Shown here piece after piece: positions 11,012 to 34,094 of a stretch of DNA of 64,000 bases. The DNA is taken from positions 100,305 through 164,304 of the forward strand of contig CAYJRN010000001.1 in assembly GCA_964372915.1 (NCBI GenBank), read 5' to 3'. The notes under the pieces were generated by a model, which worked only from the letters and a program-made list of their open reading frames with translations, made no database searches and was not told the origin of the DNA. Made by a program: the position numbers and the translations under genes. Source of the stretch: an uncultured Planctomycetales bacterium. Its GTDB lineage: Bacteria; Omnitrophota; Gorgyraeia; Zapsychrales; JAHFFX01. Within the stretch, counting starts at the first letter, position 1, and the number at the start of each line of letters is the position of its first letter.

Positions 11012-11250
11012 CTATTCGGTGTCCCCCCGCCGTTTGCTTGTTTGCACTTTTTGAACAAATAGGGACAAGCAAACAAGCGGCGGGGGGATCAAAAGGGAAT
11101 CCTGTCCGCCCCAAAATTGGGGCGGGTTCAATCAGGAACGGTCCCGCCGCTGTAACTGAATTCTTTTCCTGTTTAAAGCCATTACTCTTTTAAGAGTGAG
11201 AAGGCAAGGGAAGAGAGTTTCATTCAGAAGTCAGAAGACCTGCCGAGTAG
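11012..11250 (+). ncRNA. Cobalamin (AdoCbl) riboswitch upstream of metE
   Basis: AAAAGGGAATCCTG..., CGGTCCCGCCGCTGTAACTG (B12-box-like GCCGCTG), GAGAAGGCAAGGGAAG and the 3' AGTCAGAAGACCTGCC motif match the Cbl riboswitch consensus from memory. An intrinsic terminator follows. Confidence 0.7.
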
Positions 11251-11313
11251 CTAGAGCGCATTCCTACTGCGAAGACAGTATCAATCGTGCGTATATTCTG
11301 GGATTTAAACGGG

Positions 11314-17092: not shown

Positions 17093-17165
17093 GCTGGCGT
17101 AGCTCAGTTGGTAGAGCAGCTGACTTGTAATCAGCAGGTCGGGGGTTCGAAGCCTCTCGCCAGCT
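17093..17165 (+). tRNA. tRNA-Thr (anticodon TGT)
   Basis: GCTGGCGTAGCTCAGTTGGTAGAGCAGCTGACTTGTAATCAGC...GGTTCGAAGCC...CGCCAGCT forms a standard cloverleaf. Confidence 0.9.
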
Positions 17166-17265
17166 TAAATTGAAATTACATAAGGGCAGTCCCCAGATAA
17201 TTTTACGAGTGGGGACAGCCCCTGACTTTTCTTGAGATAAAATTTTTTAATTTCTTGTAGTCAGG

Positions 17266-17348
17266 GGGCAGATACTCAAGTGGTCAACGAGAACAGACTG
17301 TAAATCTGTTGCGCTTGCGCTTCGGAGGTTCGAATCCTTCTCTGCCCA
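17266..17348 (+). tRNA. tRNA-Tyr (anticodon GTA), long variable arm
   Basis: GGGCAGATACTCAAGTGGTCAACGAGAACAGACTGTAAATCTGT + variable arm + GGTTCGAATCC + TCTGCCCA. Confidence 0.88.
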
Positions 17349-17358
17349 TTTTTTGTTT

Positions 17359-17392
17359 GCGGGCGTAGTTCAATGGCAGAACTCCAGCCTTC
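17359..17392 (+). pseudogene. 5' fragment (34 nt) of tRNA-Gly(TCC), identical to the complete copy downstream; not foldable as a tRNA
   Basis: GCGGGCGTAGTTCAATGGCAGAACTCCAGCCTTC equals the first 34 nt of the tRNA at 17473. The sequence then diverges with no anticodon or T-arm pairing. Confidence 0.6.
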
Positions 17393-17419
17393 TCCCGTGA
17401 GCACGAAGTGCGAACGGTA

Positions 17420-17456
17420 TCCCGCTTACCATAAAAGATTTTATGAAAAAGCGGGA
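17420..17456. repeat. Nested palindrome TCCCGCTT acc CATAAAAgatTTTTATG aaa AAGCGGGA
   Basis: An 8-bp outer inverted repeat encloses a 7-bp inner inverted repeat, between the tRNA-Gly fragment and the complete tRNA-Gly. Confidence 0.7.
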
Positions 17457-17472
17457 CAAGCTGGTTTTTATT

Positions 17473-17546
17473 GCGGGCGTAGTTCAATGGCAGAACTCCA
17501 GCCTTCCAAGCTGGTAACGTGAGTTCGATTCTCATCGCCCGCTCCA
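17473..17546 (+). tRNA. tRNA-Gly (anticodon TCC), CCA encoded
   Basis: GCGGGCGTAGTTCAATGGCAGAACTCCAGCCTTCCAAGCTGG...GAGTTCGATTCTCATCGCCCGCTCCA. Confidence 0.9.
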
Positions 17547-19536: not shown

Positions 19537-19613
19537 CGGAGCGTAGCGCAGGTGGCTAGCGCACTTGAATGGGGTTCAAGAGGTCGACGGTTCAAATCCG
19601 TCCGCTCCGACCA
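19537..19613 (+). tRNA. tRNA-Pro (anticodon GGG)
   Basis: CGGAGCG TA GCGC..GCGC A CTTGA aTGGGGt TCAAG AGGTC GACGG TTCAAAT CCGTC CGCTCCG A CCA. Confidence 0.82.
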
Positions 19614-30106: not shown

Positions 30107-30211
30107 CCTTTCACTAAAATACTTCAAAATACTTCTAGCTTTTCAAATCCGCAGATGTTTTTATTTATTTCTATATGCTATACTTACAGCAGATAATAAA
30201 AGGCAAACTGC

Positions 30212-30239
30212 TTGAAAGAGCAGGACATCCCGCTATAAT
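30212..30239 (+). promoter_or_regulatory. Strong sigma70-type promoter (TTGAAA-16-TATAAT) with an AT-rich UP-like tract upstream
   Basis: cttgaaagagcaggacatcccgctataata. No protein-coding gene follows before the terminator at 30397. Confidence 0.5.
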
Positions 30240-30245
30240 AAAAAT

Positions 30246-30434
30246 GTTAGGTGGGATCGCTCCGATAGAAAAATGGAGTGGCAAAGCCACAGGTCTTCAA
30301 ACAGGATTGTGAATTAAGACAGCTGGGTTGCATTATTGAATAAGGTCTTCCATTCAACAGATTTCTACTGAATGGAAACGGAGTCTTGATAAACACAATC
30401 CTGTCCGGCAATAAAAAATGGACAGGATTTTTTT
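30246..30434 (+). ncRNA. Candidate small RNA (~190 nt) bounded by the promoter at 30212 and the terminator at 30397-30434
   Basis: Inference from a consensus-like promoter plus an intrinsic terminator with no ORF between them. Internal hairpins include ACAGGATTGTG...CACAATCCTGT. There are several GGA-containing motifs (CAGGATTG, ACGGAG). Confidence 0.35.
30397..30434 (+). terminator. Rho-independent terminator (AATCCTGTCC-loop-GGACAGGATT + T7)
   Basis: A 10-bp stem followed by TTTTTTT. Confidence 0.72.
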
Positions 30435-30526: not shown

Positions 30527-30913
30527 ATGTTTCGCGTAAAAAGAAAAATAGGATTCAGCCTCGCGGAATTGCTCATGGCAGTATTCATTCTATCGATTGG
30601 GATTGTGAGCTCGCTTTTTTTCTTTACGAGCGCGCTGATATCATCGGAATTCGCGCGGGACATGACGGAGGCCACAACCCATACGGAACATGTTCTGGAA
30701 GAAATGAAGACGCGCAGCTCTTTGTCGAACATCACGGGCACCAATTGGAGCAGTTGGGCATCGGGACAAAACGTGTTCACTCTGCCTAGTGAAACTTTAA
30801 CGGTGGCTTACGTGAACTCATCTGCCGATCCTTTAGACGTCCAGGCAACAACCTCCTGGACCAAGAAAAACAGGACGAACAACGTCTCTTTGAGAACACA
30901 GGTTCACAAATAA
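30527..30913 (+). CDS. Prepilin-type N-terminal cleavage/methylation domain protein (type IV pilin / pseudopilin-like)
   Basis: KIGFSLAELLMAVFIL is the class III signal peptide motif (G|FxLxE) followed by a hydrophobic helix. Confidence 0.7.
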   Translation: MFRVKRKIGFSLAELLMAVFILSIGIVSSLFFFTSALISSEFARDMTEATTHTEHVLEEMKTRSSLSNITGTNWSSWASGQNVFTLPSETLTVAYVNSSADPLDVQATTSWTKKNRTNNVSLRTQVHK

Positions 30914-30917
30914 GGTT

Positions 30918-31394
30918 ATGAACATCAAAAACGAAAAAGCCGTAACGCTCATTGAATTGATGGTCGCCACCTTGATTTTCAGCTTCCTGGTGGCCGGCAT
31001 CTACGCCGCGTTTCTAGCCGGGAACAGATCCTGGTCAACGCATGAGAACAACGTGGCTTTACAGCGAGATGCGCGGGGAGCCCTTTGGGTCATGGTGCCT
31101 GACTTAAGAGAGGCCAAGAGTGTTGTCATCACCCAAAGCTCAGGAAACACGGCGATCAGTTTTACAACTTTAACTTTGGGAAGCGTGTCGTACGCATGGA
31201 GCAACACGGGCGCCAGCGCCAACCAGATTATCCGAACCGTTGGTTCGAACACAAGAATCCTGGCAAGAAACATTAGCGCCATGGCCTTTACCGATCTGTC
31301 CAGCGCTATTCTCGTTGATATTACCTCCACGCGATCTGATTCGCTGGGAAAATCGGCAAACTTTAACTTAAAGGAAAAAATAGCGTATCGATAG
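30918..31394 (+). CDS. Pseudopilin-like protein with variant prepilin motif (Ala at -1)
   Basis: KAVTLIELMVATLIFSFL resembles the prepilin N-terminus, but the -1 position is Ala rather than Gly. Confidence 0.5.
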   Translation: MNIKNEKAVTLIELMVATLIFSFLVAGIYAAFLAGNRSWSTHENNVALQRDARGALWVMVPDLREAKSVVITQSSGNTAISFTTLTLGSVSYAWSNTGASANQIIRTVGSNTRILARNISAMAFTDLSSAILVDITSTRSDSLGKSANFNLKEKIAYR

Positions 31395-31416
31395 AACATA
31401 TTGAAGAAAGGAAGGA

Positions 31417-32553
31417 TTGTTGAATATGAAAAAAATTAATGATAAAGGTGTCGCGCTCATCTTTGGTTACTTTGTCATCTCGGCGCTTCTGACGCTCTCG
31501 GCTGGGTTTGCCTTATCGACAGTCAATGAATTGAACAACGCCCGCCGGTACAAGGATTCCGCAACCGCCTTTTGGACCGCCGAAGCGGGCCTCAACAAAT
31601 TCCTTGCCGATACGAATTTACTCAATACCACCAACCCGCAATCTTTTAGCGTTGGAAATTATTCGGTGACCCTGACTAAAACCGATGCCTCGAACAAACG
31701 CACGCTTGTGGCCACCAGCACCGCGGCGGGAAGCACGCGAGATTTGCAGATGGAATTTCCCGCCAACCCGCCTCCTATTTTTGATAACACTATGTCTTCC
31801 GGAGGAAATATCACCTTGAGTGGACTTCTGGGACAAATCAGCGTTTATGACAAAACCCGCCTGACCGGAAGTTTCTCAAAATCTGGCGCGGGAACATCGG
31901 CTTATTTCGAAGATAAAGTGGAAGGGGTCGCCAGCAGTTCGACGACCTTGACCTATCCAGATTCCGACAACAACGGGACCGCCGATCAATTCAACGATTT
32001 TGTTACGTTTAACCGGAATCTCCTTTCCACCTATAGTCCCAGCGAAGTCCTGTATATCCAAACAAACTCCACAACGACGATTACGCCCAGTCCCGCGCTG
32101 GCCGGAAAAAAAATCATTTATGTGGAAGGGACCTCCGCGGGAGCTGCGGACGTCAACCTCATTTTCGGCGCCACCTGGGCCGACAATCAAAATCTAACGG
32201 TTATTACAACGGGAACCCTTAATTACATTCAGCCCCTAACGGTTGCCACCAATTCGAAACTCAACACGATCGGATGGGAACGATATTATGAACCGTCCAT
32301 TCTTTTGAGCACTCACAAAGGTGTCACATACTCGCACGGTTCCGCCGATTATAAGGAACTTTTTGCTATCTCCACAACCATAGGAAGCGTTATCGGCAAG
32401 ACTGGTATAACCGCCAACGAAACAATCGCTCATAAAAAATTCTATTATGACCCGGCCCTCCAAGGCTCAGTTGTCCCTCCCGGCTTTGAAGGGCTGGTCA
32501 CCACCAGTAGCTCTGGCTATCAATCAACGCCGAGCACATGGAAGGAAATTTAA
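31417..32553 (+). CDS. PilX-N-like minor pilin / pseudopilin, Thr/Ser-rich, 378 aa
   Basis: KGVALIFGYFVISALLTLSAGFALS resembles the PilX N-terminal domain; the remainder is low complexity. Confidence 0.45.
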   Translation: MLNMKKINDKGVALIFGYFVISALLTLSAGFALSTVNELNNARRYKDSATAFWTAEAGLNKFLADTNLLNTTNPQSFSVGNYSVTLTKTDASNKRTLVATSTAAGSTRDLQMEFPANPPPIFDNTMSSGGNITLSGLLGQISVYDKTRLTGSFSKSGAGTSAYFEDKVEGVASSSTTLTYPDSDNNGTADQFNDFVTFNRNLLSTYSPSEVLYIQTNSTTTITPSPALAGKKIIYVEGTSAGAADVNLIFGATWADNQNLTVITTGTLNYIQPLTVATNSKLNTIGWERYYEPSILLSTHKGVTYSHGSADYKELFAISTTIGSVIGKTGITANETIAHKKFYYDPALQGSVVPPGFEGLVTTSSSGYQSTPSTWKEI

Positions 32554-32581
32554 ATTAAAAAAGTAACGCTGCCCCCAGAAT

Positions 32582-33124
32582 ATGTTTAAAAAAAACCCGA
32601 TTGCTTTATTATGCCTCGTCACCGTTGTGATCCTTTTTGCCACGCTTATTATCAATTCTTTGATCGAAAAGAATATGGCGCCCACTGCCGTGTCCCAATC
32701 CGCCATTCCTGTCTTGAAGGAAAAAGAACCTAAGGCCACCGGAGCCCAACAACCGGTTACGCATGAACTCATAGCTGAAAAAGATCCAGCCAAATACGGA
32801 ATCATTATCCAAGACGCGGCGGAGGTTCCCCGGACTCCAGCTCAATGGGACCGGTTTATGACGGAAGCCATCATCAAAAATAAGGTCCTGGAGCAACCCG
32901 GGGCTCAGCCGGCCGTTGAAGTGATGAAAAAGTCTCCGGAAGATTTCGAGGCTAGACAAAAAGAAATTGATGATCGGATCGCTCTATTTGAGAAAAAAAC
33001 ACAGGAAAATCCCAGCGATGCGGATGCCGAACATCATTTACAAACTCTTTACATGTTAAAAGCCTTAGGTAAAGTTCTCAAAAATAAGGTCACCGAGCCG
33101 CCTCTCAACTTACCCTCGCCTTAA
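32582..33124 (+). CDS. Membrane-anchored hypothetical protein (N-terminal TM, acidic coiled C-terminal region)
   Basis: ORF with an N-terminal hydrophobic anchor, co-directional with and close to the pilin-like genes. Confidence 0.35.
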   Translation: MFKKNPIALLCLVTVVILFATLIINSLIEKNMAPTAVSQSAIPVLKEKEPKATGAQQPVTHELIAEKDPAKYGIIIQDAAEVPRTPAQWDRFMTEAIIKNKVLEQPGAQPAVEVMKKSPEDFEARQKEIDDRIALFEKKTQENPSDADAEHHLQTLYMLKALGKVLKNKVTEPPLNLPSP

Positions 33125-33167: not shown

Positions 33168-34094
33168 TTGAAAGAACCATTCCCCGATACTATAATCCCT
33201 CTAAACCAAAAATTTCTTTCCATGAATAAACTCAACATCGATGAAATCATTACGCGGGCGCTCAAAGAAGACATTGGGGCCCGTGATATTACAACTGAGC
33301 TTTTAATCCCGCCTCAAAAAATTTCACGGGGTTTTATTATCTGCAAAGAAGAGGCGGTGATCTGCGGGCTTGAGATCGCCCGTTTGGTCTTTCAAAAGCT
33401 TGATCCTCGAGTAAAATTCCACTCTCGCTTTCGGGACAGCGACAAGGTTCCGGCATGGACAAAGGTTGCGGATCTGGAAGGAAAAACCCGGGGTCTCTTG
33501 ACGGCAGAAAGAGTCGCCTTAAATTTCTTGAGCTACCTTTCCGGCATCGCCACCAAGACCAGAAAATTTGTTGAACGGACTCGTCTTTATAAAACAAAAA
33601 TTTTGGATACAAGAAAAACCACGCCCACGCTGCGGGCCCTAGAGAAGTTCGCCGTAAAAAAGGGGGGAGGCACCAACCACCGTTTTGATTTAAGTGAGCA
33701 AGTCTTCCTGAAGGATAACCATTGGACAGCGTTAAAAGGGGCCGCCTCCCTTGCAGGGCTCGTTCAGAAAATCAAGAATTCCTCCTCAAAATCCATTTGC
33801 ATTGAGACCGCCAATCTCAAAGAATTCAACAAAGCTTTAAACGTAAAACCGGAAATTATCCTTCTGGATAATATGGATTTAAAATCAATGAAAGCAGCCG
33901 TGAAGATAGTAAGATCCATCAAAGGAAAAAAACCGGCGCTCGAGGCCTCAGGCGGGGTTACGCTTTCGAATGTCCGTTCAATCGCCCAAACCGGAGTAAA
34001 CCGTATTTCCGTTGGTGGACTGACGCATAGCCGAGAGGCCGTCGACTTTTCTCTGGAACTTGACCCATTCGACGTTGCTCAGGGTCAATCCTGA
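33168..34094 (+). CDS. nadC: Nicotinate-nucleotide pyrophosphorylase (quinolinate phosphoribosyltransferase)
   Basis: ALKEDIGARDITT N-terminus and QAPRTase fold length. The true start may be ATG 33222 (MNKLNIDEI...). Confidence 0.85.
   Translation: MKEPFPDTIIPLNQKFLSMNKLNIDEIITRALKEDIGARDITTELLIPPQKISRGFIICKEEAVICGLEIARLVFQKLDPRVKFHSRFRDSDKVPAWTKVADLEGKTRGLLTAERVALNFLSYLSGIATKTRKFVERTRLYKTKILDTRKTTPTLRALEKFAVKKGGGTNHRFDLSEQVFLKDNHWTALKGAASLAGLVQKIKNSSSKSICIETANLKEFNKALNVKPEIILLDNMDLKSMKAAVKIVRSIKGKKPALEASGGVTLSNVRSIAQTGVNRISVGGLTHSREAVDFSLELDPFDVAQGQS

Follow-up and report, generated by a model that had tools for sequence, protein, structure and literature searches.

The leader interval lies between valS and a series of prepilin-type genes, the first of which begins at position 30527 of the window, the whole 64,000-nt stretch of DNA that was analysed. 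The features of the interval and of the genes next to it are displayed in Table 1. An initial annotation had described this region as a candidate small RNA, and all of the features that it listed are present in the sequence, among them a GGUCUUC repeat (30292 and 30344), a GAGUCUUG motif (30381) and the spacer hairpin, for which no sequence conservation was found in relatives. The predicted fold of the 189-nt stretch was better than that of 200 out of 200 shuffles (z = -3.0). The view of a structured non-coding transcript ending at a strong intrinsic terminator is borne out.

Two open reading frames overlap the region, one of 45 aa (30175-30312) and one of 54 aa on the minus strand. The 45-aa frame starts within the promoter box, and in the closest relative, L160, the same frame reaches a stop after 5 codons. 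It was considered as a leader peptide and rejected because of this stop and because it is not conserved. In the public gene calls a 45-aa protein is placed at L001:1231-1368, corresponding to window 30175-30312, where it covers the promoter as well as the aptamer's 5' half; this call is almost certainly spurious.

Table 1. Positions of the leader features and neighboring genes in the window
Feature	Position	Strand	Remarks
valS	27458-30106		gene 5' of the leader interval
Extended -10 box TGCTATACT	30176-30184	+	TATACT at 30179-30184; 7 nt upstream of P1; conserved in relatives
Predicted expanded c-di-GMP-I (GEMM-I) aptamer	30192-30337	+	146 nt; cmscan match to clan CL00126, models R1 and R2, covariation, RNAalifold
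P1	30192-30197/30332-30337	+	aptamer helix
2-bp helix	30203-30204/30281-30282	+	G21-C22 with G45-C46
P2	30208-30213/30218-30223	+	GAAA loop at 30214-30217
Promoter-like site	30212-30239	+	TTGAAA (30212-30217), 16-nt spacer, TATAAT (30234-30239); 11/12 match
Two-hairpin insert	30227-30280	+	54 nt, exactly between C44 and G45; covariation and RNAalifold
P2a	30227-30233/30251-30257	+	loop at 30234-30250 (17 nt)
P2b	30258-30263/30275-30280	+	
P3	30285-30297/30316-30329	+	aptamer helix
Core equivalents	30202, 30226, 30283, 30322, 30331	+	G20, C44, A47, G83 and C92, respectively
Antiterminator 5' strand	30301-30320	+	ACAGGAUUGUG in the distal loop of P3, and AUUAAGAC (30313-30320), the 3' strand of P3
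Spacer hairpin	30350-30375	+	CCAUUCA (30350-30356)/UGAAUGG (30369-30375); inside the expression platform, in every predicted fold
Antiterminator 3' strand	30383-30404	+	GUCUUGAU-AAA-CACAAUCCUGU; overlaps the 5' arm of the terminator
Intrinsic terminator	30397-30434	+	11-bp stem, 11-nt loop, U7 tract, -15.7 kcal/mol
PilV-like prepilin	30527-30913	+	N_methyl motifs in the cluster; weak TIGR02523 PilV match
Prepilin-type protein	30918-31394	+	
PilX_N-related protein, 378 aa	31417-32553	+	some homologues carry PF14341/PilX_N
180-aa protein annotated without a function	32582-33124	+	

The proposed expanded aptamer and its family

According to the evidence below, window 30176-30434 very probably comprises the promoter of a type IV minor-pilin-like operon together with its 5' leader, the leader acting as a transcription-terminating c-di-GMP-I riboswitch. 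At the Rfam gathering thresholds, cmscan of the whole window gave nothing at the locus and returned only a cobalamin riboswitch and tRNAs. In the E-value mode (E <= 10) the best match at the locus was to the GEMM-I clan (CL00126), with E = 4e-5. It spans 30193-30336 and every position of the model, and a single 73-nt gap in the P2 region absorbs an insert. The window copy scores 30 bits against a gathering score of 59 for RF03167, the best-scoring model, and is therefore below every Rfam gathering score; its RF01051 score is hidden by clan competition. The low score reflects the penalty for the insert of 54-73 nt and not mismatches in the core. Relatives of the window copy reach RF01051 scores of 45.3 (L160), 44.2 (L090), 39.2 (L103) and 34.9 bits (L089), the gathering score being 35, and the family assignment therefore holds despite the sub-threshold window copy. 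Weak Rfam matches to ncr1575, gltS and miRNA models (E = 0.6-10) were dismissed as look-alikes of a terminator or hairpin.

The aptamer can also be read directly from the sequence. Its 5' part is GAUAAU-AAAAG-GC-AAA-CUGCUU-GAAA-GAGCAG-GAC, followed by the hairpins AUCCCGC...GUGGGAU and CGCUCC...GGAGUG, and the 3' part then reads GC-AAAGCC-A-CAGGUCUU ... AAGAC-AG-CUGGGUU-GC-AUUAUU. Full-length model alignments contain the conserved junction (AAAGGCAAA, GAC, GCAAAGCC and AGC..GGG.UGC) and the three-helix junction of P1, P2 and P3. G20, G21-C22, C44, G45-C46, A47, G83 and C92, together with the GAAA loop of P2 and GCAAAGCC, are all kept in these alignments (Vc2 numbering, with G20, C92, C44 and G83 numbered as in PMC11705072). 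The equivalents of G20, A47 and C92 are invariant across all aligned copies. In this class a GNRA tetraloop on P2 docks into P3, and C44 forms an inter-helix pair with G83. The GAAA loop, C44 and G83 are likewise conserved in all copies, and P3 of the window shows no evident canonical receptor (CUUC, not CUAA). We take A47 to be a ligand-contacting nucleotide. From these sequence features, the identity of the element as an expanded c-di-GMP-I (GEMM-I) riboswitch leader can be proposed with high confidence, and c-di-GMP is its probable ligand.

Exactly where the canonical fold joins C44 to G45, the window RNA carries two additional hairpins, P2a and P2b. Neither hairpin has a single unpaired linker nucleotide on its flanks, so the internal loop of P2 becomes a four-way junction. 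The initial annotation had proposed covariation in homologous intergenic regions of relatives as a check, and the helices were found to covary in a six-sequence alignment of their leaders. All 7 pairs of P2a and all 6 pairs of P2b show double changes, and 100% of the alignment cells in these two helices are paired. Over the whole aptamer 97.8% of the cells pair and double changes occur in 17 of 39 pairs, with P1, P2 and P3 being 94-100% paired; these values rest on six sequences (six to eight copies overall) in an alignment fitted to the model. None of 500 shuffles reached these values, and pairing fell to 31-44% when the partners were slid by 1-3 columns. Additionally, RNAalifold, which predicts its own structure, recovered P1, P2, P2a, P2b and P3.

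Loop sequence and loop length (3-17 nt) differ freely among the copies of P2a and P2b, and no conserved loop or stem sequence can be seen. This free variation suggests that the module is a structural element and not a sequence-specific site. The P2a loop of the window, at 17 nt, is AT-rich and much larger than in relatives (4-10 nt). A bolder proposal is that the Omnitrophota carry a distinct structural subclass of GEMM-I that has not been described before, in which a linker-less module at C44/G45 gives an RNA of five helices with a four-way junction. The module may then be functional and not neutral, with a possible effect on c-di-GMP affinity, folding kinetics or specificity, or a role in attracting a partner; we consider this proposal rather unlikely. 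A literature search found no GEMM-I forms with extra hairpins and no riboswitch work on Omnitrophota, which is weak evidence of novelty and not proof. Most likely, the biology is ordinary (a c-di-GMP-I riboswitch and pilus genes) and only the shape of the RNA is new.

Several known systems can be compared with this leader. The c-di-GMP-I family (RF01051), for example Vc2 of Vibrio cholerae, shares the three-helix junction, the core of GGCAAA...GAC, GCAAAGCC and AGC...UGC, the GAAA tetraloop of P2, the equivalents of G20, A47, C92, C44 and G83, the position in a 5' leader with a terminator, and the association with pilus genes. The window RNA differs from it in the two covarying, linker-less hairpins (54 nt) that turn the C44/G45 site into a four-way junction, in its score below the gathering score and in its host phylum, Omnitrophota; the internal loop of P3 is CUUC in most copies here, whereas the consensus is CUAA. 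The c-di-GMP-I-GGC model (RF03167) belongs to the same clan with the same overall fold and aligns end to end with the window, which scores 30 bits where 59 are needed. However, its consensus at the position-47 site is GCGAAGCC, whereas the window and all relatives have GCAAAGCC, and this variant was rejected because position 47 is A and not G. GEMM-Ib of Geobacter, which responds to 3',3'-cGAMP, is similar in that a GEMM-I scaffold precedes pilin and surface-protein genes in an anaerobe and works by transcription termination. GEMM-Ib carries A at position 20 and is not known to have the P2a/P2b insert; in contrast, G occupies position 20 (30202) in the window and in all other copies, so a cGAMP riboswitch was likewise rejected.

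Promoters, terminator and the predicted switch

In the window and in L160, L089, L090, L164, L165 and L103, P1 is preceded at a distance of 7-14 nt by an extended -10 box of the form TG(N)TATA(C/T)T. Judged from this conserved box, transcription most likely starts at about 30191-30192, the first base of P1. The earlier boundaries were not confirmed, as the structured RNA that is conserved has its first base at 30192, 20 nt upstream of the earlier start (30212) and upstream of the promoter that had been proposed there. As for that promoter, its hexamers exist and match the consensus at 11 of 12 positions, but they lie within P2 and P2a: TTGAAA combines the last bases of the 5' strand of P2 with the GAAA tetraloop, and TATAAT makes up the first six bases in the loop of P2a. 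None of the relatives compared has a counterpart of TATAAT, whereas the upstream -10 box is conserved. In the 64-kb window, 4 promoter matches of at least 11/12 were observed against 0.37 expected from a first-order Markov simulation, and the match at 30212 is therefore not a trivial chance event. The three other sigma-70-type matches of 11/12 are at 33168-33196, 10399 and 24033, all on the forward strand.

The terminator consists of the arms AAUCCUGUCCG (30397-30407) and UGGACAGGAUU (30419-30429) around an 11-nt loop, with the U-run at 30428-30434. A simple terminator scan missed it because the loop is longer than 8 nt. A hairpin with a U-tract follows all 8 of the expanded aptamers, and the AUCCUGUC...GACAGGAUUUUUU type of terminator sequence is common to the window, L089, L090 and the aptamer-less L162.

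The 11-bp long-range pairing of ACAGGAUUGUG (30301-30311) with CACAAUCCUGU (30394-30404), noticed in the initial annotation, proved to be real and conserved, and it corresponds to an antiterminator. In the minimum-energy fold of a window transcript that ends before the 3' arm of the terminator, 30301-30320 pairs with 30383-30404, the antiterminator being extended by the pairing of AUUAAGAC in the 3' strand of P3 with GUCUUGAU (30383-30390). For all 7 copies folded in this way, the minimum-energy fold pairs the 5' arm of the terminator with nucleotides of P3. In L160, as in the window, the partner of the terminator 5' arm is the distal loop of P3, and compared with the window the antiterminator of L160 (GCAGGAUUUUC/GAAAAUCCUGC) shows 3 compensatory double changes and 0 disruptions. 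In L089, L090, L103 and L165 the partner of the terminator 5' arm is the invariant 3' half of the aptamer, GACAGCUGGGUUGCAUUAUC, which pairs with GAUAAUG(C)AA(U/C)CC(U)GUC; in L103 a change of GACAG to GAUGG is matched by a change of CUGUC to GCCAUC.

These competing pairings account for the repeated motifs. The two copies of CAGGAUU reflect the competition of the P3 loop and the 3' arm of the terminator for AAUCCUG, and the three copies of GUCUU are explained by the ability of each to pair with AAGAC. A CsrA-type reading of the GGA motifs is not supported, the repeated CAGGAUU and GUCUU sequences being strands of P3, of the antiterminator and of the terminator that compete with one another.

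In the window, the antiterminator fold has a predicted energy of -69.6 kcal/mol compared with -54.8 kcal/mol for the ligand-free aptamer fold, and read-through would thus be the default. Without ligand, the 5' arm of the terminator would pair with the distal loop and the 3' strand of P3, and RNA polymerase would read through the antiterminator into the pilin genes. Binding of c-di-GMP would lock P1 and P3 and release the 5' arm, so that the terminator could form and transcription would stop, and the remaining leader RNA, about 243 nt long, would pass for a small RNA in RNA-seq. That ligand binding would exclude the antiterminator is argued from sterics, with an 11-nt strand in the P3 loop, and from the 8-bp extension that uses the 3' strand of P3. 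The minimum-energy fold of the full-length window RNA already contains the terminator and a near-aptamer fold, which indicates that the switch would depend on co-transcriptional kinetics. On these folding models, an OFF switch, in which c-di-GMP turns the pilin genes off, seems fairly likely. A c-di-GMP-II riboswitch before pilA1 of Clostridioides difficile likewise lets c-di-GMP control transcription of a type IV pilin through a leader terminator. However, its aptamer fold is unrelated, and it is an ON switch, whereas the window leader is predicted to be OFF.

Relatives and the pilin genes

For the 378-aa protein encoded by the third cluster gene, 55 homologues with identities of 31-100% were found, and the named sources are all Omnitrophota or Omnitrophica. 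The pilin loci that were fetched (655 kb) were searched with a model of the window aptamer (R1) and a model of the six sequences (R2). Eight distinct expanded aptamers were recognized: the window copy, L160, L103, L090 (identical to L166), L164, L089, L165 and L168. Homologues score 74-118 bits with these models, L160 reaching 88 (R1) and 118 (R2). Apart from three canonical GEMM-I elements, no other match to R1 or R2 was found over the 655 kb. Every expanded aptamer lies on the coding strand directly upstream of the first gene of the same minor-pilin cluster. The gene order of this cluster is conserved in L160-L166, and the full order of valS, leader, pilins and nadC is kept in L160 and L166.

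An Rfam scan of 40 further pilin loci at gathering thresholds gave no match, even for L164 and L165, which carry expanded aptamers. Among valS neighborhoods of 185,579 species genomes, the closest valS genes were 56-60% identical and came from Omnitrophota MAGs, which places the window in this phylum, and none of 9 such loci had a GEMM-I match.

Larger aptamers are found before the same pilin cluster at L165:1649-1970 and L168:1861-2016. Besides P2a and P2b, both have two more hairpins in the 5' strand of P2, and L165 contains a further insert of about 150 nt with long hairpins in the P3 loop. Syntenic relatives without an aptamer also exist, at L161:2957-3082, L162:1147-1290 and L163:2018-2080 (the same as L085:3048-3110). 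The GEMM-I aptamer is absent from these loci, and a TGYTATACT promoter box and a terminator are kept, which indicates that the terminator can exist without a GEMM-I sensor. The terminator of L162 is the same AUCCUGUCC...GGACAGGAUUUUUUU sequence as in the window. The leaders of L161 and L162 (about 100 nt) gave no Rfam match and no convincing similarity to each other, and in L163/L085 only about 30 nt separate the promoter from the terminator.

On another Omnitrophota contig, two canonical c-di-GMP-I riboswitches of about 69 bits each (L147:3833-3926 and L147:5745-5840) flank a homologous PilX-like gene, with a terminator behind the upstream one. The c-di-GMP signal is thereby linked independently to these genes in the phylum. 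A further canonical c-di-GMP-I copy is present at L086:85-167, about 3.8 kb upstream of the cluster.

The four genes from 30527 to 33124 appear to form one operon on the forward strand. The 11/12 promoter match at 33168-33196, just before the likely start of nadC, suggests that the regulated unit ends at 33124. This match includes the TTG chosen by the ORF finder as the start of nadC; it is probably a separate nadC promoter, and the real start is probably the ATG 18 codons downstream, as in the L001 call of 290 aa. In two relatives a PilZ-domain gene is located a few genes downstream of the pilin cluster (L165:6382-6759 and L166:6374-6763), and at the corresponding position the window has a xanthine-dehydrogenase-like cluster from 34929. 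A crude regular-expression search for GGDEF, HD-GYP and PilZ motifs found none in the 64-kb window, the search being too crude and the window too short for a conclusion.

Alternative readings and implications

The gene model of the initial annotation, a stand-alone and trans-acting small RNA of about 190 nt running from 30212-30239 to the terminator and possibly acting as a CsrA/RsmA sponge, is extremely improbable. A promoter-like site and a terminator do exist, in favor of that model. Against it, the conserved structure is a riboswitch aptamer that begins upstream of the 30212 promoter, and the element always lies directly upstream of the same operon. The RNA is non-coding, ends at a terminator and contains a small number of GGA motifs, of which one lies in the loop of a small hairpin, as a sponge of the CsrB/RsmZ type would; however, there are only about 5 such motifs, mostly within helices, whereas CsrB-type RNAs present many GGA in loops, and the repeated motifs are accounted for as competing helix strands. 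The Rfam check for 6S, CsrB/RsmZ and others that had been recommended was run with cmscan and gave no match to 6S, CsrB or RsmY/RsmZ at E <= 10, and a CsrB/RsmZ-type RNA was rejected, the window element also being cis-linked to one operon. Terminated riboswitch leaders do act in trans in some bacteria, which speaks for a possible role of this kind. An independent gene is not supported, as the RNA comprises a c-di-GMP-I aptamer with its expression platform, and relatives retain it in front of the same pilin operon. The initial annotation had itself named the contrary case, in which the region is simply the 5' UTR of the pilin gene with read-through at the terminator, and this is essentially what the evidence shows, the read-through being predicted to be regulated.

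Two other readings accept the aptamer and differ in what it does. The internal promoter may be genuine, so that the conserved upstream promoter would give the full riboswitch and TTGAAA-16-TATAAT would serve as a second, strain-specific promoter; the enlarged P2a loop of this strain may have evolved it as a bypass of the sensor. A transcript from about 30246 would be without the 5' strand of P1, P2 and half of P2a, could not sense the ligand and would default to the antiterminator, giving basal pilin expression independent of c-di-GMP. The rarity of 11/12 matches (4 in the window, 0.37 expected) agrees with this, as does the location of TATAAT in a 17-nt loop that measures 4-10 nt in relatives, as if AT-rich sequence had been added, and an RNA unable to form the aptamer is more stable when folded as the antiterminator. 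However, TTGAAA is nearly a free by-product of the conserved GAAA loop of P2 and the internal site is not conserved in relatives, the sole other sample with the locus being identical and thus uninformative; we regard this reading as quite unlikely. It is also conceivable, and in our judgment very unlikely, that the element is a decayed or re-purposed GEMM-I relic, in which the insert inactivates binding, or another cyclic dinucleotide is sensed or a protein bound to P2a/P2b, and the terminator is a constitutive or otherwise controlled attenuator. In favor of this, the window copy is below the Rfam thresholds, the terminator persists in relatives that have no aptamer, further large expansions occur in L165 and L168, and the insert breaks the backbone beside C44, the nucleotide that makes a tertiary pair in Vc2 (PMC11705072). 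Against decay, the ligand-contacting and tertiary-contact nucleotides are invariant across the aligned copies, and compensatory changes in all helices make purifying selection visible. Against a changed ligand, G20 in place of A20 argues against cGAMP specificity, and the absence of conserved loop or stem sequence in P2a/P2b argues against a sequence-specific second ligand.

A c-di-GMP-I riboswitch leader is thus the preferred reading, and it has consequences for annotation. The 54-nt insert drops the riboswitch below the Rfam thresholds, so that standard pipelines leave the locus unannotated or call a spurious 45-aa ORF, as in L001, and a first-pass reading sees a promoter and a small RNA where the aptamer sits. 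In the uncultivated phylum Omnitrophota, surface appendages are believed to be important for lifestyle, and the prediction from this locus is that c-di-GMP represses a minor-pilin set in this phylum. Moreover, the natural series of aptamers from canonical to five-helix and seven-helix forms could reveal how a riboswitch core takes up peripheral modules while its ligand pocket stays undisturbed.

Other RNA elements were observed elsewhere in the window. A full-length cobalamin riboswitch aptamer lies at 11061-11261 on the forward strand (74.6 bits), and five tRNA genes are present on the same strand, at 1840-1912, at 17093-17543 (three, clustered at 17.1-17.5 kb) and at 19537-19610.
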